A program made the translations under genes and the position numbers. This document shows, piece by piece, positions 7,101 to 17,257 of a DNA stretch of 64,000 nucleotides. The notes beneath the pieces were generated by a model that saw only the letters and a list, made by a program, of their open reading frames with translations, made no database searches and was not told the origin of the DNA. This DNA is from a virus (taxonomy: Duplodnaviria > Heunggongvirae > Uroviricota > Caudoviricetes). Numbering within the stretch: the stretch's first letter is position 1; each line of letters starts with the position of its first letter. The stretch lies in IMG/VR virus record IMGVR_UViG_647533160_000003; one strand, given 5' to 3'.

Positions 7101-7117
7101 TCAAGGATTTTTTGGAC

Positions 7118-10100
7118 ATGGAACAGTTCAAGAAGAAAAAATTACCGCTTCTTATTGCCGGTGCTGGTGGCAAGAAAAGTAAAAGCTCCAGCCGTACCCC
7201 GGTTGAAGCTGATGATACTGTCAATTCTCGTGCTATGGCAGCCATCCTCGACCTTCTTGGCGAGGGGGTTATCGGTGGCCTGGTAAATGGCGCAAAGTCG
7301 ATCTTCATCGACGATTTACCGATCTTGAATGAAGATGGCTCTTCCAACTTCAGCGGTATTACATGGGATTTTCGTGACGGCTCACAAGACCAGACGCCAA
7401 TGGCTGGTTTTGATTTTGTTGAAACGCCTAAGTCCGTAAATATTCAGCTCAAAAAAACACACGACGTTACGGTTTCAATCGATAACGATGAAGCTGATCG
7501 CGTTCGTGTCATCATGAAATTCCCCTCTTTACGTAGCGTTGATAAAAGCTCTGGCGATACAAATGGCACTACGGTGAAGTACAAATTCCAGATCGCCAAC
7601 GGAGACGCAACATTTTCTGATGTAGTGGCAGAAGGTGAGAAAAGCGTTGATATCACGCTAACGGCAAAGAAAACCGGCGTGTATTACCGTAGCTATGAGC
7701 TGAAACTGCCTAAGCCTGGTCGTGCATACAAGGTTAGGGTGATTCGTCTTACAGATGATAACAGTAGCCAGTACCTCTACAACGACACATGGGTTGATTC
7801 CATCGGTGAGATTGTAGATACACCCATGAACTACCCTAACTCTGCACTTGTTGGCTTAAAGGTCAATTCAGAGCAGTTTGGTAGCACAATGCCTTCTCGT
7901 TCGTATTTGGTACGCGGTATCAAAATTCGAGTGCCGTCAAACTACAACGAATACACCAATACTTATGTCGGCGTATGGGACGGTACTTTTAAGCTGTTGT
8001 CTTCTTCAAACCCTGCGTGGATTCTCTACGATTTGCTTACCAATACTCGGTATGGTCTTGGGCAATTTGTGTCGGAATCCATGATTGACCTCGGCCAGCT
8101 CTACCAGATTGGTCGATATTGTGACGAAGAGGTCGATGATGGCTTTGGGGGTAAAGAGAAACGCTTTGCAATCAATACGCAGATCACCAGTCGACAAGAC
8201 GCATACCGATTAATTCAGGATATTGCTGGTGCATTCCGCGGCATGGTGTTTTGGGCTGGTGGCATGGTTAACATCATGCAGGATAGCCCATCAGATCCGG
8301 TAATGATGTTTACCAACTCCAACGTCAAAGATGGACTGTTTACCTATAAAGGTTCTGCGCGTAAAGATCGCCCATCCGTTGCGCTCGTAACCTACAACAA
8401 CAAGGAGGACGGTTATAAGCAAAACATCGAGTACGTTGAAGATCAGGACGCAATGCGCCGTTATGGTGAGCGTAAAACAGAAGTCGTAGCATTTGGATGT
8501 ACAAGCCGAGGCCAGGCTCACCGAGTTGGTTTGTGGCTTTTGTATACCGCCAGAATGGAGTCGGATGTAATTACATTTACTGCCGGCTTAGACGCCTCAT
8601 TTCTGATGCCTGGTGAAACCGTTCTGATTCAGAACAAATATCGTGCAGGTAAACGTAACTCCGGTCGAATTGTGGAGTTTACCAAAAACAGCATCACTCT
8701 CGATGCGCCTGTGTCGTTAGCTAAAAGCGGCAGCTTTATTCGGATATTGAATCAGGAAGGCAAAATCGTTGAACGCGATGTTCTTGAAACTGGCGAAAAC
8801 ATAACAAAGGTTACGTTTTCAAAAGCCCTGTCGTCAGCGGAAACGCCTGTTTTGAACGGTGTCTGGACAATTACAGAACCAGATCTCGAACCTATGCGCG
8901 TTCGCATCGTTAACATCGCTCAGGGGGAAACGTCGGGTAGCTTTGACATCACCGCTGTTGAAAACAATCCGTCTAAATATGAGGCGATCGACAATGGTGC
9001 AACGCTTATCCCGCAGAATACGACGGTATTGGACCCGACTTACTCCAAGCCGTCTAATTTGCAAATCACTGAAGGGACTTACCTCTCAAGCCCGGGTAAC
9101 CTGTCAGTAAAACTGACTGCAACATGGGAAGGGAAATCTCCAGAGTATTGGATCAGTTGGCGACGTTCTGATGAAAACAATGTATCGAACTGGAAATCGG
9201 CGCGTGTAACCGAAGAGCAATACGAAATTGTTAATGTCGCGGAGAATGGACGCTACGACTTCCAACTGTATGCGGTTTCATTCAACGGTAAAAAAACAGA
9301 AATTATCAGTACCGTTTATCAGGTGCTGGGCACAATGACACCGCCGGATGCACCAACGTCATTAACGGCCGTTGGAGACTATCGTAATGTGATACTGAAT
9401 TGGGTTAATCCAGATTCGGTAGACCTTGATCACATTAATGTTTACGCATCCCAGACCAATAATCTGGATACGGCGAAACTGATCGCAGAGTCTGCAAGCA
9501 CCACCTTTACACATGCTGGTCTTGGGGATAGTGAAACGTGGTATTACTGGGTTCGAGCTTCGAACAAGCGCGGCATGTTAAGTCCTCCGAACTCAAACTT
9601 GGGTACAGAGGCGACAACTCGCGATGTACTGTCGTTCCTGGAAGGTAAGATTACATCGTCTGAGCTTGGTCAGGCTCTGCTTGAGGACCTCAACAGCAAA
9701 GCCTCTCAAGAAGCAGTTGACGAGTTAAATGAGCATATCAACCAGAGCGTCGAATCTTTGGAGGGGGCGGTAAACGACGTTAAGGAAGATATAGCTGAAT
9801 TAGATAAGCAGTTCAGCGATAACCTCGCGGATTTTGAAATAAAATTCAACGAGCGTAGCGATGCTTTGGAGAACGCACAAACCGAGCTTAAAGGTGAGGT
9901 TTCGGCAACGATCGACAAGGTCAATGAAGCGTTTGAAAAAATTGATGCTACTGATGCTGCAATTGTTGAAATCGAAAACACCGTATCTGAACACGATAAA
10001 GCTCTCGCTAATACAGTCGAGGCAATAAAGGCTGCAAGAGATGAAGCGGCGGCTCTTATTGCTAAGGAAAGCGAGGCTCGTGTTGAAGGCGATGCTGCAA

Positions 10101-11842
10101 ACGCTAAACAACTGGAAGTGTTGCAGTCAACGGTAGAGGAAAGCTCCGCTGCTGTTGAAGAAATGAAAAAGACGGTTGCAGAGGTCGATCGTGCCAGTGC
10201 AGAACTGACTACGAACATTGAGGCGTTAGCCAAAACAAATATTGACCTGGCTCTTCGTCAAGATGAAGACCAGCACAAGCAGATGGTCAATAACGCGAAG
10301 ATCGCAACAACACAGAAAACCTTTGCTGATGATATGTCTGCAATGGCCACGAAGGTTGAGGAAATTCGCGTAGAAATTGGCGAAGACATTAAGGCCAGTA
10401 TTCTGGAAGAGTCCACCGCTCGTGCCGATGGCGATGAAGCGTTGGCAAAGCGTGTCACTCAGCTGCAATCTAAGTTTGAAGGAGATATCAGCGCGGCGAT
10501 TAGTACAGAGCAGGAGGCTCGTACATCTGCCGATGAAGCTCTGACGACACAGATCACTCAGCTTGAGTCGAAAGTAAGCAACGATATCGTCGCAGCTATT
10601 AAGGAAGAGCAAGAAGCCCGAGCAACGGAAGATTCGGCTCTGGCAAGCCAGATCACCCAACTTCAGGCAAAGGTTGATGATGATATTTCTGCTGCAATAC
10701 GTAGTGAGCAGGAGGCTCGAGCAAGCGGGGACTCTGCGTTAGCCAAACAAATAAACCAGCTTCAGTCAAAGGTTGACGGTGATATATCCGCTGCCATCAC
10801 TCAGGAGCAGGAGGCCAGAGCAAGTGCTGACCAGGCGCTCTCACGAGAAATTAACAGCCTGCGAGCACAAACCGGAACTGATATTGCCGCAGCGGTTGCT
10901 GTAGAGACAAAGGCAAGGACTGATGCCGATAGTGCATTGTCCACTCAGATTTCGTCTCTTACAGCAAAAGCTAATGATCTCGAGGCATCTCTTGCCAGAG
11001 AAACAACGGCTCGTGCAGATGGCGATACCGCTTTAACAAAAGAGGTTTCAAGTTTAAAAGCACAGACTGCGAAAGATATTAGTGCGGCCGTTGCAGTGGA
11101 AACGCAGGCTCGAACTGATGCTGACTCGGCGTTGTCATCTCAGATCACCAAGCTGACCTCTCAATACAAAGAGGATATTAAAGCGGCTGTAGCAACCGAA
11201 ACGAAAACGCGTACAGAGCAAGATGCGGCATTGGCGACTCAAATCACAAAATTAGAGTCTCAAACAGCAGCCAACATTTCTGCGGCGGTCACAACTGAAA
11301 CGACAGCGAGAACGCAGGCAGATAATGCTCTAAGTGGGCGAATCGATACTCTGAAAGCAGAGGTGGATGGAAATACCGCGACAATTCAACAGCAGGCAAC
11401 AGCCATTGCTGATACCAACAAAAAAGTCTCAACCGCGTGGACGTTGAAAATGGAGACTTCAACGAGCGGAGGGCAGAAGTATGTTGCCGGTATTGCGCTT
11501 GGTATCGACACCACCGGTCTTTCTCAGTTTTTGGTGCAGGCGGACAGATTTGGTTTGGTCAACTCTGTTAACGGGAAGATCACCACGCCATTTGTTATCG
11601 AAAACAGTATCGCCTATATGAATGGTGCGTATATCAAGGATGGCACAATCACCAATGCAAAAGTAGGCGATCTGCAATCTACCAATTTTGTTAGCGGTAG
11701 ATCTGGATGGCGGTTCGGCAAAAATGGAACGCTTGAGATCAACGGTAATAGCGGCGGCAATGGGCGATTGGTTATAAATGGTCAGCGGATTGACGTTTAT
11801 GACGATAACAACGTCTTACGAGTAAGAATTGGCCTTCTGTGA
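7118..11842 (+). CDS. host specificity / central tail fibre protein, lambda gpJ-like with inserted coiled-coil repeat stalk
   Basis: Blocks YPNSALVGLKVNSEQFGS, RYCDEEVDDGFGG, AFGCTSRGQAHRVGLWL, FLEGKITSSELGQALLE and GGQKYVAGIALG match lambda J as recalled; about ten tandem ~33-aa helical repeats (approx 10440-11350) lie between the last two blocks. ATG 7118 preferred over TTG 7112. Confidence 0.8.
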   Translation: MEQFKKKKLPLLIAGAGGKKSKSSSRTPVEADDTVNSRAMAAILDLLGEGVIGGLVNGAKSIFIDDLPILNEDGSSNFSGITWDFRDGSQDQTPMAGFDFVETPKSVNIQLKKTHDVTVSIDNDEADRVRVIMKFPSLRSVDKSSGDTNGTTVKYKFQIANGDATFSDVVAEGEKSVDITLTAKKTGVYYRSYELKLPKPGRAYKVRVIRLTDDNSSQYLYNDTWVDSIGEIVDTPMNYPNSALVGLKVNSEQFGSTMPSRSYLVRGIKIRVPSNYNEYTNTYVGVWDGTFKLLSSSNPAWILYDLLTNTRYGLGQFVSESMIDLGQLYQIGRYCDEEVDDGFGGKEKRFAINTQITSRQDAYRLIQDIAGAFRGMVFWAGGMVNIMQDSPSDPVMMFTNSNVKDGLFTYKGSARKDRPSVALVTYNNKEDGYKQNIEYVEDQDAMRRYGERKTEVVAFGCTSRGQAHRVGLWLLYTARMESDVITFTAGLDASFLMPGETVLIQNKYRAGKRNSGRIVEFTKNSITLDAPVSLAKSGSFIRILNQEGKIVERDVLETGENITKVTFSKALSSAETPVLNGVWTITEPDLEPMRVRIVNIAQGETSGSFDITAVENNPSKYEAIDNGATLIPQNTTVLDPTYSKPSNLQITEGTYLSSPGNLSVKLTATWEGKSPEYWISWRRSDENNVSNWKSARVTEEQYEIVNVAENGRYDFQLYAVSFNGKKTEIISTVYQVLGTMTPPDAPTSLTAVGDYRNVILNWVNPDSVDLDHINVYASQTNNLDTAKLIAESASTTFTHAGLGDSETWYYWVRASNKRGMLSPPNSNLGTEATTRDVLSFLEGKITSSELGQALLEDLNSKASQEAVDELNEHINQSVESLEGAVNDVKEDIAELDKQFSDNLADFEIKFNERSDALENAQTELKGEVSATIDKVNEAFEKIDATDAAIVEIENTVSEHDKALANTVEAIKAARDEAAALIAKESEARVEGDAANAKQLEVLQSTVEESSAAVEEMKKTVAEVDRASAELTTNIEALAKTNIDLALRQDEDQHKQMVNNAKIATTQKTFADDMSAMATKVEEIRVEIGEDIKASILEESTARADGDEALAKRVTQLQSKFEGDISAAISTEQEARTSADEALTTQITQLESKVSNDIVAAIKEEQEARATEDSALASQITQLQAKVDDDISAAIRSEQEARASGDSALAKQINQLQSKVDGDISAAITQEQEARASADQALSREINSLRAQTGTDIAAAVAVETKARTDADSALSTQISSLTAKANDLEASLARETTARADGDTALTKEVSSLKAQTAKDISAAVAVETQARTDADSALSSQITKLTSQYKEDIKAAVATETKTRTEQDAALATQITKLESQTAANISAAVTTETTARTQADNALSGRIDTLKAEVDGNTATIQQQATAIADTNKKVSTAWTLKMETSTSGGQKYVAGIALGIDTTGLSQFLVQADRFGLVNSVNGKITTPFVIENSIAYMNGAYIKDGTITNAKVGDLQSTNFVSGRSGWRFGKNGTLEINGNSGGNGRLVINGQRIDVYDDNNVLRVRIGLL

Positions 11843-11935: not shown

Positions 11936-14900
11936 ATGTGGTACAGGGAAGGTACTATCACATTTACACAGGGTAGTAATACTCTGGTTGGGGTTGGGAC
12001 AGCCTGGAACGTAACAGCTAATGGTGTGTTGCCGGGGATGATCGTCATTGGCCCCGACAATAAGCTGTATGAGATCAAGCGCGTAACAAGCGATACGAAC
12101 ATTGTTCTCTCAGAACCTTATACCGGTGAAACTCAGTCTGAAGTTCCGTGCCGAATCATTACTACCTATGAAGGCGACTTAACACAGTTTAGCGCGCGCT
12201 TTACCGCGCTAATGTCGCGTATGTCGGCTGATTCCAAGTCCATGCGTAGTTGGTTGACTGCTCTGGATGAGGTGACAATCGAGCGTGAAGACGGTACAGA
12301 AGTGACCGTTAAGCCGCTGATGCAGATCGTCAACGAGCACAACGAAAACGTTGAGTGGTATAAAAATAACACTGACGCGATTGATGCCGCTGGTGACAAA
12401 GCTCGTGAGGCGGCGGCCAGTGCTGCCGCAGCAGCAGAAAGCGCCAATACCGCTGGAGAAAAAGCATCTCAAGCGTCTCAAAGTGCATCCGCTGCGGCAT
12501 CCTCACAAAGTGCCGCAAGTGCGAGTGCAACTGCTGCGAAAAAATCTGAAACGAACGCAGAATCAGCATATCTAGCGGCAGCAGAATCAGCGTCTGTAGC
12601 GTCGACCAAAGCATCGGAGGCAGCAACATCTGCGTCCAGTGCCTCTGCATCTAAGGATGCAGCCAAAGCATCAGAGACTAACGCTTCATCGAGTGCAAAC
12701 GCGGCTGCATCATTTGCAACAGAAGCTGAAAATTCGTCTAAGGCAGCAAAAGCGTCAGAGACAAACGCAAAAGCATCTGAAACGGCAGCCGGGCAGAGTG
12801 CATCGTCTGCAAACAGTTCGAAATCTGCGGCAGAAGCGTCAGCAAGCGCAGCCTCAGCAAGTGCGGATAGAGCTTCATCAAGTGCAACTGCGGCAGGAAA
12901 ATCTGCGGAAAGCGCGTCGTCGTCAGCGACAACAGCTACCGCAAAAGCGACTGAGGCGACGAATCAGGCTACAGCCGCTAAAAATTCAGCATCGGCAGCA
13001 AAATCCTCTGAAACAAATGCAAAGGCTTCTGAAGATAATGCCGCTTCCTCTAAAGAGGCAGCTGCTGAATCTGCAAGTTCTGCGTCTGCATCAGCCACCT
13101 CGGCATCCGCTTCAAAAGATGAGGCGACCAAGCAGGCATCAGCTGCGAAGGGGAGTGCTTCAACGGCATCCACGAAAGCAACAGAGGCGGCAGGCAGTGC
13201 GACGGCTGCATCTCAGAGCAAAGCTGCTGCTGAATCCGCTGCGACCCGTGCAGAAGCTGCCGCTGATCGTGCTGAAGAGATTGCCGGTGCCGTTGCGATG
13301 GAAGACGCAAGCCTTACCACCAAAGGTGTTGTGAAACTTAGCAGTGCTGTCGACAGCACCAGTGAATCGCTGGCCGCAACGCCAAAAGCAGTTAAAGCAG
13401 CCAATGACAATGCGAATAGCAGGGTGCCATCTAACCGAAAAGTTAACGGTAAAGCACTGACTGCGGATATCACATTAACGCCGAAAGATATTGGTACTTT
13501 AAATTCAGTAACGATGTCTTTCTCTGGCGGGGCTGGGTGGTTCAAACTGGCTACGGTTACCATGCCACAAGCGAGTTCCATCGTTTACATCGCATTGATT
13601 GGTGGCGCTGGTTACAACGTCGGCTCCCCACATCAGGCAGGCATTTCAGAACTGGTTCTACGAGCAGGCAATGGAAACCCCAAAGGGATTACCGGTGCTT
13701 TGTGGAAGCGGACAGCCGTCGGATTAACGAATTTCGCCTGGATCAACACATCCGGCGATACATATGATATTTACGTTGAGATTGGCAATTATGCGACTAG
13801 TGTAAATATCCATTGGGATTGTACTGCAAATGCGACAGTTTCTATTTATACATCGCCAACATATTCAGCGAGTAAGCCTTCCAGCGTTACCGATGGTGTT
13901 GTTTATACGATGTATAGCACACATCAGAAACCGACGCCGTTAGATATTGGAGCACTGCCAACAACCGGAGGAACAGTTTCAGGTCCGTTGTCTGTTACTG
14001 GTGGGATCACCGGAACATTAAATGGTAATGCAAGTACAGCAACGAAATTGCAGACGGCAAGATCTATCGGTGGAGTTGGTTTCGACGGTTCTGCAAATAT
14101 CAACCTTCCAGGTGTAAATACTACGGGTAATCAGAACACCACTGGTAATGCTGCAACTGCTACAAAACTTCAGACGGCAAGAACTATCGGCGGCGTGAGC
14201 TTTGATGGTACTGCGAATATTAATTTGCCAGGTGTTAATACGACTGGTAATCAGAATACAACGGGCAACGCGGCTACTGCTACGAAGTTGCAGACTGCAC
14301 GTACTATCAATGGGGTGTCGTTTGACGGCTCGGCAAATATTTCCTTGTCGCCAGCAAATATAGGTTGCCCGGCATCTCCTACTGGTTGGTTAACTACAGG
14401 AAGTAATGGCGGAGCAATAACAACAGCACAGTTAGTGACGTTATTGCAAAATAATGGAGCATTTAACACAAAGTCATGGATTGCTCGATGTGCGTGGGCC
14501 TATGCCAATAGTGCAACCATACCAAACAGTGAAACTGGTTGTGGCGTTATTCCATTGGCAGGAGCTGTTATAGAGGTATTTAATAACGGTAGTAGCTCAA
14601 ACAATTATACGATCCGTATAACAACGGCCACAACGACGAGTGTCTCTGGTGCTCTCACTAATGCGGAGTTTATCTATGTATTTAATGGCACAGATTATTC
14701 TCCGGGATGGCGAAGAGTATATAACACGAAAAACAAACCAACAGCCTCTGATGTCGGTGCATTACCTCTTACCGGTGGTACATTATCTGGAGGTTTGACA
14801 TCTTCTGGCGAGATCATTTCAAAATATGCAAATGGTTTCCGCATTGCTTACGGTAGCTTTGGGTTCTTTATCCGTAATGATGGATCGAACACATATTTCA

Positions 14901-16093
14901 TGCTAACAGCATCAGGAGACACATTAGGTTCATGGAACGGTTTGCGACCTATTACAATTAATAATACCAGCGGTGCGGTATCAATTGGTAATGGACTAAA
15001 TGTGACTGGTGGCGTAAATGGTAGTTTGAACGGTAATGCTTCAACAGCTACGAAGTTGCAAACAGCGAGAAACATCAATGGTGTTAAGTTTGATGGCTCA
15101 GGCGATATCAACATTAATACACTGGTATCTCGTGGCCGAGTTACGGCATTAAGCGGCTCTACTCAAGGCACTGCTGGCATTCAAATGTACGAGGCGTACA
15201 ACAATAGCTACCCGACCACGTATGGCAACGTATTGCACATGAAAGGTGCGAGTGCTGCTGGTGAGGGCGAGTTGCTTATTGGCTGGAGTGGTACGAGCGG
15301 TGCACATGCGCCAGTTTTCATTCGCTCACGAAGAGATACCACAGATGCGGCATGGTCAGCGTGGGCGCAGCTATATACTGCTAAGGATTCAATCCCTGGT
15401 GTGAATACAACCGGTAATCAGAATACTACTGGTAATGCCGCAACAGCCACAAAATTGCAGACAGCAAGGAAAATTGCTGGTGTGGCGTTTGATGGCTCTG
15501 CCGATATTACTTTGACTGCGGCTAACCTTAATGCTTATACGAAAACAGAGGTAACAAACCTTCTAAGTTCCTATGCAAGCAGATCATCACTGACAGGCTA
15601 TAGTGGCAACCTGGATATTATTGCTGAAACACTGGTTGTCAAATCAGGCGGTAGTGGAGGGTTTGCTATATGGGATATTGGCACAACTACTAGCGGTGCC
15701 AATATGTACATTGATCCAAACCCTGGTATCAATACAGTTTGGCGTTCAACATCTTCAAGGCGCTATAAAAAGGATATTGAAACATTACAAGATCGATATG
15801 CTGATGAACTTTTGTCATTAAGACCTGTTTGGTATCGTTCAATTTGTCGAGGTGACCGAAAGGATTGGGGGTATTACGGCCTTATTGCTGAAGAGGTTGG
15901 TGAGATTGCCCCGCAATATGTCCATTGGCGTGAACCAACAAATAATGATTCTCCAGAAGATATTTCCTCAAATGGTATGGTCGCTGAAGGGGTGATGTAT
16001 GAGCGTTTGGTTGTACCACTCATTCATCATATTCAGCAATTGACCAAAAGGGTTGAGGAGCTTGAAACGAAGTTAAATTCACCTAAAGAATAA
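11936..16093 (+). CDS. long tail fibre protein with Ala/Ser-rich low-complexity region, repeated NTTGNQNTTGNAATATKLQTAR units and C-terminal intramolecular chaperone-like domain
   Basis: Ala/Ser/Lys/Glu-rich region approx 12400-13300; at least five copies of a ~40-aa unit (approx 14020-14350, 15000-15110, 15400-15500); C-terminal segment resembles the autoproteolytic chaperone domain of tail fibres/endosialidases; hairpin 16103-16125 downstream. Confidence 0.75.
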   Translation: MWYREGTITFTQGSNTLVGVGTAWNVTANGVLPGMIVIGPDNKLYEIKRVTSDTNIVLSEPYTGETQSEVPCRIITTYEGDLTQFSARFTALMSRMSADSKSMRSWLTALDEVTIEREDGTEVTVKPLMQIVNEHNENVEWYKNNTDAIDAAGDKAREAAASAAAAAESANTAGEKASQASQSASAAASSQSAASASATAAKKSETNAESAYLAAAESASVASTKASEAATSASSASASKDAAKASETNASSSANAAASFATEAENSSKAAKASETNAKASETAAGQSASSANSSKSAAEASASAASASADRASSSATAAGKSAESASSSATTATAKATEATNQATAAKNSASAAKSSETNAKASEDNAASSKEAAAESASSASASATSASASKDEATKQASAAKGSASTASTKATEAAGSATAASQSKAAAESAATRAEAAADRAEEIAGAVAMEDASLTTKGVVKLSSAVDSTSESLAATPKAVKAANDNANSRVPSNRKVNGKALTADITLTPKDIGTLNSVTMSFSGGAGWFKLATVTMPQASSIVYIALIGGAGYNVGSPHQAGISELVLRAGNGNPKGITGALWKRTAVGLTNFAWINTSGDTYDIYVEIGNYATSVNIHWDCTANATVSIYTSPTYSASKPSSVTDGVVYTMYSTHQKPTPLDIGALPTTGGTVSGPLSVTGGITGTLNGNASTATKLQTARSIGGVGFDGSANINLPGVNTTGNQNTTGNAATATKLQTARTIGGVSFDGTANINLPGVNTTGNQNTTGNAATATKLQTARTINGVSFDGSANISLSPANIGCPASPTGWLTTGSNGGAITTAQLVTLLQNNGAFNTKSWIARCAWAYANSATIPNSETGCGVIPLAGAVIEVFNNGSSSNNYTIRITTATTTSVSGALTNAEFIYVFNGTDYSPGWRRVYNTKNKPTASDVGALPLTGGTLSGGLTSSGEIISKYANGFRIAYGSFGFFIRNDGSNTYFMLTASGDTLGSWNGLRPITINNTSGAVSIGNGLNVTGGVNGSLNGNASTATKLQTARNINGVKFDGSGDININTLVSRGRVTALSGSTQGTAGIQMYEAYNNSYPTTYGNVLHMKGASAAGEGELLIGWSGTSGAHAPVFIRSRRDTTDAAWSAWAQLYTAKDSIPGVNTTGNQNTTGNAATATKLQTARKIAGVAFDGSADITLTAANLNAYTKTEVTNLLSSYASRSSLTGYSGNLDIIAETLVVKSGGSGGFAIWDIGTTTSGANMYIDPNPGINTVWRSTSSRRYKKDIETLQDRYADELLSLRPVWYRSICRGDRKDWGYYGLIAEEVGEIAPQYVHWREPTNNDSPEDISSNGMVAEGVMYERLVVPLIHHIQQLTKRVEELETKLNSPKE

Positions 16094-16153: not shown

Positions 16154-16408
16154 ATGAGCTATGGTGCACAGGTATGGTCGCCATCAAGACAGGAGATGGT
16201 CGATGCGTTGGCCCCTGTTTATTACCTCGATTATTTTACTCCCTCTGGTTCTGGAAGTAGAACATATGAGGTTGAGGCGGGATTGGGAATCGACTATTAC
16301 ATAATGGACGTAACCAATGGGAAATACACAAGTCTTACGGTTTCTGGAAATACCATTTCATGGTCTGGAGCTAGTGGCAATTTAAACATATTGGTTTTTC
16401 AAAAATAA
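16154..16408 (+). CDS. hypothetical protein (84 aa)
   Basis: ORF with ATG start after tail-fibre hairpin; no recognisable motif. Confidence 0.4.
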   Translation: MSYGAQVWSPSRQEMVDALAPVYYLDYFTPSGSGSRTYEVEAGLGIDYYIMDVTNGKYTSLTVSGNTISWSGASGNLNILVFQK

Positions 16409-17016
16409 TGTACGGAAGCAAGATATATCGATCTGACGGGAAGGTCTGGATGTCTCCTTCTTTGTCTCCTATCGTTTTTCAGAGAAAGCAGGTTGTTTCT
16501 TTGTCTGGCGGGACAGAGTTTAACACCCAAATATCTCCAGATCGTTCACCGATGATTTTTGTTGCCTATTCGAAAGCTGTTTCATTAATAGCCAACAGAA
16601 TAGTGCGTAACAACCAGGTGATTTACAGTTTCGGAGGTCAGGGTAGCGATTCTAGTGCCACGATATACGTATTTTCGAAAGGTATAGCCAAAAAAGAAAC
16701 TTGGGGCATGAGTTTTTTCAATGCGCGAGGAGAGGAGATCTATAATACGGCAAATATCCCACTTTCATTTACCTTTCTTAATAATACGGAGTGGAACAGT
16801 TCTGGAGGGCATGTTTTTGATTACCCGCCAGCGATAATCCCAACATATGCAAATGTGTTCGCGGTTCCAGTACCGGGCGGGGCCATGACAATGGTTTATG
16901 GATATGCGGCATATGGAAATACTGTTAGCTCGATATTCGTAAACCAACTTAATGGCGGCCATAGTTTTAGCGTAAATGGCAGAGTACCGGTAATAAATAG
17001 AAATCTGTATAACTGA
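16408..17016 (+). CDS. hypothetical protein (202 aa), possibly tail-fibre associated
   Basis: Start overlaps preceding stop (ATAATG); lies between tail fibre and lysis genes; no motif recognised. Confidence 0.4.
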   Translation: MYGSKIYRSDGKVWMSPSLSPIVFQRKQVVSLSGGTEFNTQISPDRSPMIFVAYSKAVSLIANRIVRNNQVIYSFGGQGSDSSATIYVFSKGIAKKETWGMSFFNARGEEIYNTANIPLSFTFLNNTEWNSSGGHVFDYPPAIIPTYANVFAVPVPGGAMTMVYGYAAYGNTVSSIFVNQLNGGHSFSVNGRVPVINRNLYN

Positions 17017-17023
17017 TGAGTAA

Positions 17024-17257
17024 ATGATGAAAAGATTATTTCTAACAATAGCTGTTGTTCTCTCTCTTACTGGCTGCCAGAAATTGCCGACACCTATATG
17101 TTACGGTGAGGCTATCATTGGTGGACAGGAGACAGTCATACCCATATATGCTGTTAAAAAAGTGAACGACTATACCTTATACAAAGCGGGTAGCATCTAT
17201 AACTGGCGATGGGTAGGAGTAGGTGCTTTCTCATCAGTTCGTTGCAATGCTGAATGA
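17024..17257 (+). CDS. small lipoprotein (77 aa)
   Basis: Signal peptide with lipobox (LSLTGC) at the N-terminus. Confidence 0.5.
   Translation: MMKRLFLTIAVVLSLTGCQKLPTPICYGEAIIGGQETVIPIYAVKKVNDYTLYKAGSIYNWRWVGVGAFSSVRCNAE

Follow-up and report, generated by a model that had tools for sequence, protein, structure and literature searches.

Is the long repetitive stalk of the J-like tail-tip protein a new device of this phage, or a version of something known? The gene lies in the 64,000-nucleotide stretch of DNA analysed here (the window), whose source element is an SSU5-like phage-plasmid of E. coli, 94-95% identical to Escherichia phage Cyrano. We placed the gene at 7118..11842 (+ strand) from the ORF list and its matches to Cyrano and lambda J. 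The mechanical ORF opens with the TTG codon at position 7112; counted from the ATG at 7118, the start annotated in Cyrano, the protein has 1574 aa. Residues are numbered here from the TTG, and subtracting 2 gives the ATG numbering. Full-length comparison with the Cyrano gene for 'tail host specificity protein J' yielded 94-95% DNA identity, and lambda J aligned at 32% identity over 873 columns.

The protein starts with a lambda-J-like hub and fibronectin-III (FNIII) domains (aa 1-840), continues as a helical shaft and ends in a Phage_Tail_Tip beta domain. In the first part (7418..9586, + strand), Pfam detected FNIII-A_GpJ (aa 103-237, E 1.1e-29), Phage-tail_3 (aa 359-522, E 7.5e-34) and fn3 (aa 746-825, E 2.6e-05). 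The Phage_Tail_Tip domain (PF09327, formerly DUF1983; 11381..11785, + strand, aa 1424-1558) covers profile positions 1-138 of 139 with an E value of 1.3e-41, and the protein ends 18 residues past it. Identity among E. coli SSU5-like lineages is 94-96% in the hub and FNIII part, and the tip domain is 92-96% conserved in E. coli and Salmonella lineages of this group.

An earlier note on this DNA had described an insertion of several hundred residues between two blocks that match lambda J. Both blocks were found as placed: FLEGKITSSELGQALLE (9635..9685, + strand, aa 842-858, aligned to lambda J 817-835) opens the helical shaft and corresponds to the upper helix of the lambda AHS helix bundle, and GGQKYVAGIALG (11468..11503, + strand, aa 1453-1464) lies inside the Phage_Tail_Tip domain. 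BLASTP (E 6e-119) aligned window residues 20-858 with lambda J 3-835 and residues 1419-1507 with lambda 841-931, so that about 560 residues here stand in for about 5 in lambda. The resulting shaft of about 570 residues, with no proline in 562 of them, occupies the site of lambda's 53-residue AHS bundle. The AHS of lambda spans residues 809-861, and LamB binding converts 841-861 from helix to beta strands (PMC11101478); it is with this converted stretch that window residues 1419-1439 align.

Lambda gpJ (PDB 8IYK, 8XCJ) is homologous to the J-like protein in its hub, FNIII domains, AHS helix start and central straight fibre. However, its AHS has only about 53 residues, and at its C-terminus it has a LamB-binding domain of some 200 residues that is missing here. 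From 'YVAGI' onwards, 120 residues compare with 257 in lambda, and BLASTP against lambda J confirmed that the lambda receptor-binding domain is absent; a short C-terminus of this kind is that of T1 and the pyocins. The protein scored 533 with the NCBIfam lambda_TipJ model (cut-off 1950), and the HMM of the 33-residue unit described below found no unit in lambda J. The J-like protein is a central tail fibre (tail-tip) protein on the T1/N15/F-pyocin plan, not the lambda plan.

The insertion consists of two parts. The first is a proximal shaft of 233 residues (9686..10384, + strand, aa 859-1091), characterised by hydropathy spectrum, charge profile and a match to phrog_496 'tail fiber protein' (1.7e-34). 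It is proline-free and strongly acidic, with a net charge of about -22 across aa 841-960, and its hydropathy spectrum has a lone peak at 3.55 residues, a heptad-type periodicity. One or two degenerate units (about 946-1010) can be discerned in it, with a weak unit HMM match at 981-1009. The second part (10385..11371, + strand, aa 1092-1420), identified by the unit HMM and supported by AF2 and alignment to pyocin fibres, comprises ten consecutive tandem units of 33 residues, one of which has 32, with the consensus DISAAIxxEQEARAxADxALxxQIxQLxAKVxx. Self-identity is 0.31 at lag 33, 0.25 at lag 66 and 0.20 at lag 99, against at most 0.14 away from multiples of 33. The array accounts for 329 of the approximately 560-595 inserted residues (55-59%). 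The reported periodicity is therefore real, whereas the statement that repeats make up most of the insertion was slightly generous, given the different heptad-type segment in its first 233 residues.

The units share 48% identity in protein and 52% on average in DNA (range 39-65%). Tandem Repeats Finder detected no array in the DNA, and the longest exact direct matches in the repeat region measure about 14-20 nt, in keeping with the divergence that had been described. We counted 10 units in the window and in Cyrano, 9-10 in PhiR41_1, 7 in Salmonella and Yersinia relatives, 6 and 2 in other E. coli lineages, and five strong and one weak in SSU5 itself. Among SSU5-like lineages the shaft is 58-69% identical, versus 92-96% for the ends. 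SSU5 (SSU5_020), Cyrano, CMS-2020a and PhiR41_1 share gene order and unit with the window and are nearly identical in hub and tip. Cyrano J is 96-99% identical in amino acids to the J-like protein throughout, and lengths reach from the common E. coli form with 2 units (1229 aa) through SSU5 (1385 aa) to PhiR41_1 (1535 aa).

Differences of this kind, together with the many database J copies that end at contig ends, could point to a contingency locus in which slippage or unequal recombination frequently changes copy number and so varies fibre length within a population. We consider this extremely improbable. The units differ too much in DNA for slippage to act on them, the truncated N-terminal fragments stop at aa 950-1090, upstream of the array, and the region was found with at least 80% coverage and 95-99% identity in 165 of the 176 complete E. 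coli plasmids, aligned as a single piece in nearly all matches listed. Judged from these comparisons, unit number varies between lineages and is stable within the lineage of this element. The suggestion of a spacer with variable copy number consequently holds between lineages (2, 6, 7 and 10 units) but not within one.

The closest relatives of the array are the shafts of other central fibres. In PDB searches it matched the F2-pyocin fibre 25vf_A within its coiled coil (E 5.5e-25, query 402-707, chain 884-1193), and the shaft also matched T1 gp33 (9l9p_S, 3.1e-29), 9ze4_N and 23gd_D. These similarities show homology of the units with the coiled-coil shafts of T1 gp33 and the central fibres of F-type pyocins, which hold about four and about five copies, respectively. 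Overall, shaft matches fell into 3,284 protein clusters; the unit occurs in thousands of database proteins in up to 26 copies, and 55 of the best 150 matches have at least ten.

The F-type pyocin central fibre (PyoF10 / PA0641; PDB 25vf; F7 pyocin) shares the lambda-like hub, the FNIII domains, a trimeric alpha-helical shaft and a distal beta-prism domain, likewise lacks the lambda receptor-binding domain, and is accompanied by small PyoF11/F12-type genes and a separate fibre gene. Its shaft has 163 residues, about five units, and the SxSxxMxxLxS motif is common to both. In contrast, the array of the J-like protein has twice that length (10 units, 329 aa), is preceded by 233 extra helical residues and belongs to an infectious phage-plasmid with a cor gene rather than to a tailocin. 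T1 gp33 (PDB 9l9p; PMC11945409) and its N15/HK022 relatives are alike at the C-terminal end, the T1 alignment reaching residue 1167 of 1172. The 33-residue unit recurs in gp33, with two near-identical copies of DDIQASLTDIREVIATETEALSREIDQLKAQIG; the C-terminal 352 residues of this 1172-aa protein are not resolved experimentally. The stalk is the usual alpha-helical shaft of central fibres of the T1/N15/F-pyocin type, whose length varies; it belongs to a known family, among its large members, and is no novel sort of device. The idea of a remodelled receptor-binding apparatus stands for the insertion relative to lambda, the lost domain and the separate fibre, but this shaft type is not peculiar to the phage.

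What such a shaft may do is suggested by the pyocin. According to a 2026 cryo-EM preprint, residues 921-1083 of the F7 pyocin central fibre start as a trimeric coiled coil and convert into a beta-prism, which drives puncture, and Gln at the 'S' positions of SxSxxMxxLxS blocks the transition and abolishes killing (PMC12874032). The same work predicted this switch with AlphaFold-based methods in 21 of 24 phage central fibres; its remark that lambda and T5 lack an extensive switch counts against a switch here. An independent structure shows a coiled coil over residues 907-1084 of PA0641 (bioRxiv 10.64898/2026.02.24.707460). By homology with the pyocin segment, the array of this phage may switch fold as well, and a fold-switching shaft is the explanation that we favour with moderate confidence.

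Several features of the units bear on it. Each of the ten matches SxSxxMxxLxS perfectly twice, in reverse orientation from position 4 and in forward orientation from position 19. The array has 27 perfect matches, against 5.7 ± 2.3 expected (1,000 shuffles, maximum 14), in a comparison where the ten units are not independent and Ala/Ser/Thr-rich helices readily satisfy the 'small' positions. The hydropathy profile of the unit is dominated by a beta-like harmonic of 2.06 residues (permutation p ~0.013) and also has helical harmonics of 3.67 and 4.1 residues; the helical harmonic alone is not significant (p = 0.23). Residues A4, E9, R13, D17, A19, L20 and L27 are invariant and small-residue positions are conserved, too. 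The four-residue spacing of E9, R13 and D17 fits the Arg/acid spacing described for the pyocin (PMC12874032).

The strong two-residue alternation could also mean that the array is an extended, lambda-like central straight fibre in the virion already and never a coiled coil. AF3 predicts a beta-prism outright in 30% of related phage fibres (PMC12874032), and the pyocin coil is not maintained without bound side fibres. Nevertheless, we regard a permanent beta-prism as very improbable: two independent structures show a helix in the homologous pyocin segment prior to ejection, the E9-R13-D17 spacing suits helical salt bridges, and the AF2 prediction is helical with pLDDT above 94. That monomer model, built from a shallow alignment, comprised one unbroken helix over aa 1258-1409 (pLDDT 88-98) followed by three low-confidence strands, in agreement with the helical repeats that had been proposed.

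The modelled helix would be equally compatible with a permanent coiled coil. On that reading the stalk is a passive spacer, a rigid trimer that never refolds and holds the tip domain and its receptor-binding partners away from the tail, so that the tip could reach through O-antigen or capsule. AF2 gives a helix alone with very high confidence, the 233-residue proximal part is a simple heptad coil, whole-unit length differences separate the lineages, and a shaft that diverges faster than hub and tip is expected if only the coiled-coil pattern is constrained. However, a heptad or hendecad pattern would then suffice, yet seven positions of the unit are invariant. In addition, the small positions are kept, although He et al. 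(PMC12874032) describe them as exposed to solvent in the coil, a pure coiled coil has no need of the 2.06-residue harmonic, and the units are homologous to a segment that refolds in experiment. We therefore think a purely passive role rather unlikely; the stalk is probably more than a spacer.

If the shaft does switch fold, three J chains would form a metastable trimeric coiled coil in the virion. Fully straight, the array alone would measure about 49 nm and the whole shaft about 84 nm, both upper bounds, since kinks or back-folding may shorten the shaft. Contact with the receptor would make the array refold into a triangular, compact beta-prism, for which the beta strands after it would act as seed, with one beta-hairpin per 33-residue unit; two strands per unit are suggested by the motif rather than by a published structure. 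Ten units would thereby shorten from about 49 nm to about 10 nm, and the collapse would pull the tail tip onto the outer membrane, open the tip and free the tape-measure protein. Reach and stroke length would depend on how many units there are, and this would account for whole-unit differences between lineages with conserved hub and tip. A point against this reading is that structures offer no precedent for an array of ten units, twice that of the pyocin, behind another 233 helical residues.

The separate long fibre gene that the earlier note had seen after J (11936..16093, + strand) encodes 1385 aa. Pfam, PDB and PHROG matches define an N-terminal attachment module that is conserved, a low-complexity stretch rich in Ala and Ser, a trimerisation domain like those of Mu S and T4 gp34 (Gp34_trimer, 5.9e-29; PDB 8ju3 and 5yvq, Mu tail fibre S) and a C-terminal S74 intramolecular chaperone (Peptidase_S74, 4.6e-06), unlike the PyoF13-like fibre of pyocins. 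The N-terminus matches PHROG tail-fibre families. Under the fold-switch reading, this protein would be a side fibre for primary adsorption.

Carrying three trimers of this fibre could be the main task of the extra shaft, chiefly of its acidic proximal 233 residues, an arrangement compatible with fold switching. In F-type pyocins, the coiled coil has a kinked, acidic part that takes up basic stem helices of the side fibre; here aa 841-960 are acidic, and a model of the fibre N-terminus shows a small beta-barrel and then the basic helix FSARFTALMSRMSADSKSMRSWL. But that model has low confidence (pLDDT 64), its best PDB match, phi92 endosialidase, is weak (E 0.017), and no pyocin side fibre appeared in its PDB match list. 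The fibre has no sequence similarity to pyocin side fibres, and side fibres of the lambda and T5 types attach elsewhere. We hold such a docking platform to be improbable.

Distal specificity probably resides in two small ORFs and cor past the fibre gene, not in the fibre alone; the earlier note had missed these genes. The first, an 84-aa ORF (16154..16408, + strand), is a candidate PyoF11-like distal tip protein and matches phrog_557 (1.3e-24), as do T1 ST32 (1.9e-31) and SSU5_023 (7.6e-22). The second, of 202 aa (16408..17016, + strand), is a candidate PyoF12-like protein and matches phrog_425 (5.5e-49; T1 ST31 9.3e-68; SSU5_024 7.5e-44). The legend of supplementary figure S2 in a preprint names T1 and N15 proteins among the aligned PyoF11/PyoF12 homologues (bioRxiv 10.1101/2021.02.16.431561); from its place directly 3' of the central fibre gene, ST32 would be the T1 protein meant. 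In T1, gp33 is followed by the same pair of small genes and cor with no fibre gene in between. Here the fibre gene separates J from the PyoF11/12-like genes, which are not directly 3' of J as is reported for that family, a point against the tip-protein reading.

The two small proteins would probably provide distal receptor binding. Adjacent to their genes lies cor, which would make FhuA the likely target; SSU5, however, is reported to use LPS core, not FhuA (PMC4138488), which counts against it. The cor homologue (17024..17257, + strand) encodes a 77-aa lipoprotein with a signal peptide and the lipobox LTGC and matches phrog_1119 'Cor superinfection exclusion protein' (2.3e-30). Cor follows the same two small genes in T1 and SSU5, in T1 on the opposite strand.

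The J-like central fibre gene of the window spans 4.7 kb on the + strand (7112-11842) when the ORF is called mechanically from a TTG. Residues are counted here from this TTG; the true start is likely the ATG at 7118, two codons further on, which is used by the near-identical gene of Escherichia phage Cyrano. The genes upstream of J are homologues of the lambda L and K/I-type tail-tip proteins. Pfam placed FNIII-A_GpJ at aa 103-237 (1.1e-29), Phage-tail_3 at aa 359-522 (7.5e-34), fn3 at aa 746-825 (2.6e-05) and Phage_Tail_Tip (PF09327, DUF1983) at aa 1424-1558. The latter match covered profile positions 1-138 of 139 with 142.1 bits against a gathering cut-off of 22, which makes the protein a member of this family.

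BLASTP aligned lambda J residues 3-835 with window residues 20-858 (32% identity, E 6e-119) and lambda residues 841-931 with window residues 1419-1507. Since both blocks flank a gap, about 560 window residues occupy the place of five in lambda. This is the insertion between two lambda-J-like blocks that the earlier note had described, and we located its two matching motifs at nt 9635-9685 and nt 11468-11503. The N-terminal hub and FNIII domains of a lambda-type TipJ were found by Pfam as well as by BLASTP. Lambda residues 932-1132, with the LamB-type receptor-binding domain, had no aligning sequence in the window J, and the protein stops 18 aa past Phage_Tail_Tip. From 'YVAGI' to the end it comprises 120 residues versus 257 in lambda, so that the short C-terminus noticed before is real. 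Full-length equivalence to lambda J was not found with the NCBIfam model lambda_TipJ either (533 bits versus a cut-off of 1950), and to annotate this gene as 'Host specificity protein J' is misleading.

The 562 inserted residues, which we call the shaft, contain no proline and consist of two types of helix. Self-comparison of aa 841-1440 gave its top peak at lag 33 (31% identity), followed by lags 66 and 99. The underlying array comprises ten units (aa 1092-1420, nt 10385-11371, + strand), one of 32 and the others of 33 residues, with the consensus DISAAIxxEQEARAxADxALxxQIxQLxAKVxx. An HMM made from the units recovered 10 of 10, plus a degenerate copy at aa 981-1009. The first 233 inserted residues (aa 859-1091) form a distinct proximal coil, strongly acidic near its start (aa 841-960 carry a net charge of about -22), with a lone hydropathy peak at 3.55 residues. 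Thus, the tandem periodicity of about 33 residues was upheld and the feature as a whole is real and was well described, although repeats account for only a little over half of the inserted residues and not for most of them.

At the nucleotide level the units are diverged, as had been proposed: between units, identity is 48% in protein and 52% in DNA, and exact DNA matches reach only about 14-20 nt. Tandem Repeats Finder did not detect an array in the DNA of the unit region, and a DNA repeat search returned 99-nt-spaced fragments of 60-74% identity and nothing closer. On these two grounds we rejected slippage-type variability of the copy number.

The energy source that lets non-contractile phage tails pierce the outer membrane has long been sought. 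A leading answer is the conversion of a coiled coil into a beta-prism in the central fibres of F-type pyocins, published in 2026. These fibres carry, at a position equivalent to the window shaft, a trimeric coiled coil of 163 residues, or about five 33-residue units. Cryo-EM and cryo-ET showed that upon target contact the whole segment becomes a triangular beta-prism (2026 preprint, PMC12874032). The conversion opens the tip, and the tape-measure protein is lost from the tube alongside; Gln at the small-residue positions stops the switch and abolishes killing, and for 21 of 24 related phage fibres the same switch was predicted by AlphaFold-based methods (PMC12874032). Another group determined the structure of the coiled-coil state and likewise considered it metastable (bioRxiv 10.64898/2026.02.24.707460). 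In lambda, a smaller rearrangement is known. Its AHS, a three-helix bundle of residues 809-861, lies below the FNIII domains, and upon LamB binding residues 841-861 go from helix to beta strands atop the central straight fibre (PMC11101478). The window shaft is inserted at the AHS position, and by BLASTP the homologue of the switching lambda segment 841-861 is window residues 1419-1439.

Searching the PDB sequence set, we obtained as best matches 9l9p_S (T1 gp33, 3.1e-29) and 25vf_A (tail fibre of the F2 pyocin, 5.5e-25), followed by two other central-fibre entries and then by lambda gpJ, matched in the tip only. Shaft and tip are homologous to the last ~400 residues of the F-pyocin central fibre: phmmer aligned query residues 402-707 with 25vf_A 884-1193 (E 5.5e-25), a match that spans the last five or six window units plus the tip. 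Among central fibre shafts of the T1/N15/F-pyocin class, the window stalk is a long one, and a mechanism for this class was published in 2026.

The published signature of the switching segment is SxSxxMxxLxS per strand, in alternating orientation, with an acidic residue at M paired with an Arg four residues away (PMC12874032). All ten units of the window contain a perfect reverse-oriented match from unit position 4 (A4, I6, E9, A12, A14) and a perfect forward match from unit position 19 (A19, S21, I24, L27, S29). That is, 20 of the 20 expected positions are matched in alternating orientation, and the array holds 27 perfect matches versus 5.7 +/- 2.3 in composition-matched shuffles. E9, R13 and D17 are invariant across the units. 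A 2.06-residue harmonic is the strongest component of the unit's mean hydropathy profile (permutation p ~0.013), with helical periods of 3.67 and 4.1 present too, whereas the proximal coil displays the helical period only.

The same shaft is helical by prediction. An AF2 monomer model built from 31 sequences gave one helix over aa 1258-1409 (pLDDT 88-98), which bears out the helical character proposed for the repeats, and, after it, three strands that might seed a prism (aa 1412-1450; residues 156-162, 165-178 and 182-194 of the model), with a pLDDT of only about 50-56. The helix, the lack of proline and the helical hydropathy period place a segment of high helical propensity directly upstream of the beta domain. 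Within an E-value limit of 0.001, Foldseek with the monomer model of shaft plus tip returned a single PDB structure, that of the SU10 tip fibre (3e-06); the open-state lambda fibre was runner-up (about 5e-03). TM-scores were poor because the trimer is intertwined, which left the search little informative.

If the switch takes place in this phage, each 33-residue unit would correspond to one beta-hairpin of the post-trigger prism, and ten units would convert a coil of ~49 nm into a prism of ~10 nm. A serious rival is a permanent coiled-coil spacer, with a shaft that never switches; the predicted helix and the single helical period of the proximal coil sit well with such a spacer, while the alternating motif in every unit and the 2.06-residue harmonic point to a switching segment. 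Should the shaft switch, the units could be read as modular hairpins whose gain or loss tunes the reach, the contraction distance and perhaps the stored energy of a spring-loaded fibre, the stroke of ~40 nm, about twice that of the pyocin, being matched to the thickness of the host surface layer. We put this reading forward tentatively and consider it rather unlikely; the units on which it builds number 2 to 10 in this single phage-plasmid family, and in other proteins as many as 26. The word 'repeat' is absent from the fold-switch preprint (PMC12874032), which mentions neither the repeat structure nor a copy-number series. Explicit 33-residue modularity of the shaft may thus be new, as may a natural copy-number series in one abundant phage-plasmid family.

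The J DNA is 94-95% identical, from end to end, to that of Escherichia phage Cyrano and of the plasmid record 'phage CMS-2020a', both of ~108 kb and related to Salmonella phage SSU5. A literature search on Cyrano returned one unrelated virome paper, in which no more than the name occurs. Of 5426 complete E. coli genomes, 176 contain the shaft-plus-tip DNA, without exception on plasmids (roughly 100-155 kb) and in no case on a chromosome. In 165 of the 176, 80% or more of it was present, at 95-99% identity and, for nearly all rows listed, as a single aligned piece. Given this identity and plasmid distribution, the window belongs to a common SSU5-like phage-plasmid, of a family that is common in E. 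coli.

Within this family, unit counts differ between lineages: 10 in the window and Cyrano, 9-10 in PhiR41_1, 7 in Salmonella and Yersinia relatives, and 6 and 2 in other E. coli elements; in the J of SSU5 we scored five strong units and one weak. Between the E. coli and Salmonella SSU5-like lineages, hub and tip are 92-96% identical and the shaft 58-69%, with length differences of whole units. Flanked by conserved ends, the shaft thus is a module that evolves fast and varies in length, and its divergence could reflect relaxed constraint or a recombination boundary. As a side observation, Megablast similarity to PhiR41_1 ends at nt 2651 of the J gene, almost exactly at block 1. The suggestion that the spacer could vary in copy number holds among the SSU5-like lineages, but the array is not hypervariable, and shaft length is constant within the window's own lineage. 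The family offers a natural series in which near-identical hubs and tips enclose 2, 6, 7 and 10 copies of a putative switching unit. With it, the effect of shaft length on reach, stroke or host range can be tested in an infectious phage besides the tailocin, and the series might be of use for engineering the length of such fibres.

From sequence comparison, the stalk is not peculiar to this element, and many other J-like proteins carry the unit. While the unit HMM found none in lambda J, T1 gp33 contains about four. Two consecutive T1 units at aa ~915-985 (record L006, 1544-5062) are near-identical (DDIQASLTDIREVIATETEALSREIDQLKAQIG) and look recently duplicated, in contrast to the window units, which are old and diverged. 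A full scan with HMMER, covering 1.84 billion representative proteins, returned 3284 clusters (E <= 1e-3); of the top 150 of these, 55 hold at least ten units and the highest count is 26. Two metagenomic relatives stood out, one of 2138 aa (P0121) with an unbroken run of 21 units and one of 2850 aa (P0133) with 26 units in all, and some array-matching proteins measure 3000-4200 residues. Long arrays are rarer among sequenced phages, where the array by itself matches 60 records (E <= 1e-8), 17 of which span 80% or more of its length.

The type of C-terminal end is shared with T1 gp33, since the alignment of the window J reaches within five residues of the T1 C-terminus, and pyocin fibres likewise do without a lambda-type receptor-binding domain. 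In pyocins, PyoF11 and PyoF12 are small, essential, detected in particles and predicted to attach at the central fibre's end; T1 and N15 proteins are aligned as their homologues (bioRxiv 10.1101/2021.02.16.431561). The window encodes a comparable pair on the + strand within 16154-17016, an 84-aa ORF (phrog_557, 1.3e-24; the family of T1 ST32 and SSU5_023) and a 202-aa ORF (phrog_425, 5.5e-49; the family of T1 ST31 and SSU5_024). Hence candidates for both small genes of 'Specificity Module 1' are present, through PHROG families shared with T1 ST32 and ST31. Family membership rests on the PHROG profiles because direct BLASTP was weak (2e-04 for the 84-aa ORF versus ST32, 0.016 for the 202-aa ORF versus ST31), and searches of PDB, Pfam and NCBIfam gave no matches for either ORF. 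The pair adjoins a Cor-family lipoprotein gene at 17024-17257 (+, 77 aa, signal peptide, lipobox LTGC, phrog_1119 2.3e-30).

The small genes do not follow J directly, as a 4.2-kb fibre gene (11936-16093) intervenes. SSU5 likewise has a fibre gene between J and the small pair, unlike T1 and the pyocins, where none separates the central fibre gene from the pair. T1 and SSU5 share the set of small pair plus cor with the window, with the T1 cor on the opposite strand. The Cyrano annotation lists no genes between the fibre gene and the holin. Together, the J C-terminus, the 84-aa and 202-aa ORFs and Cor look like a distal specificity module, in which the two small ORFs, functionally unannotated, are probably the specificity genes. 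Cor of phi80, N15 and HK022 blocks FhuA-dependent phages, so that the neighbouring cor hints at FhuA, a reasonable guess for the tip receptor. SSU5 has been reported to require the LPS core (PMC4138488).

The long, separate fibre gene after J (11936-16093, +) was found as the earlier note had stated. It encodes 1385 aa, versus about 1341 aa in Cyrano, with a trimerisation domain of the Mu-S/T4-gp34 type and, at the C-terminus, an S74 chaperone, and probably represents a side fibre. An Ala/Ser-rich low-complexity stretch of roughly 320 residues extends over aa ~150-470, and several copies of a motif like NTTGNQNTTGNAATATKLQTARxIxGVxFDG are present. Pyocin side fibres dock on the acidic proximal part of the shaft, and the window fibre may do likewise. 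The model of the fibre N-terminus was weak (pLDDT 64, from a shallow alignment of 24 close homologues); its best PDB match, the phi92 endosialidase, was not significant (E 0.017), and no pyocin side fibre was listed for this weak model.

Many public copies of J and the fibre are 'partial', with contigs that end within the gene (records P0077-P0118 and P0266-P0285; L004, L005). Partial N-terminal fragments of J break off upstream of the array (aa 950-1090), and those of the fibre at aa 160-265. Two inspected contigs of 109 and 107 kb, about full plasmid length, start or end inside J. Assembler behaviour on repetitive or low-complexity sequence may account for the partial copies, or IS insertions may; a chromosomal shaft copy as a source of assembler confusion was absent from the complete E. 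coli genomes. On the complete E. coli plasmid NZ_CP020118.1 (41344-44276), an IS1 transposase splits J in the shaft region, which suggests that some such phage-plasmids would be defective as phages. Two antisense ORFs over the window shaft (9706-10233, -, 175 aa; 10226-10660, -, 144 aa) are probably by-products of its biased, repetitive codon content.
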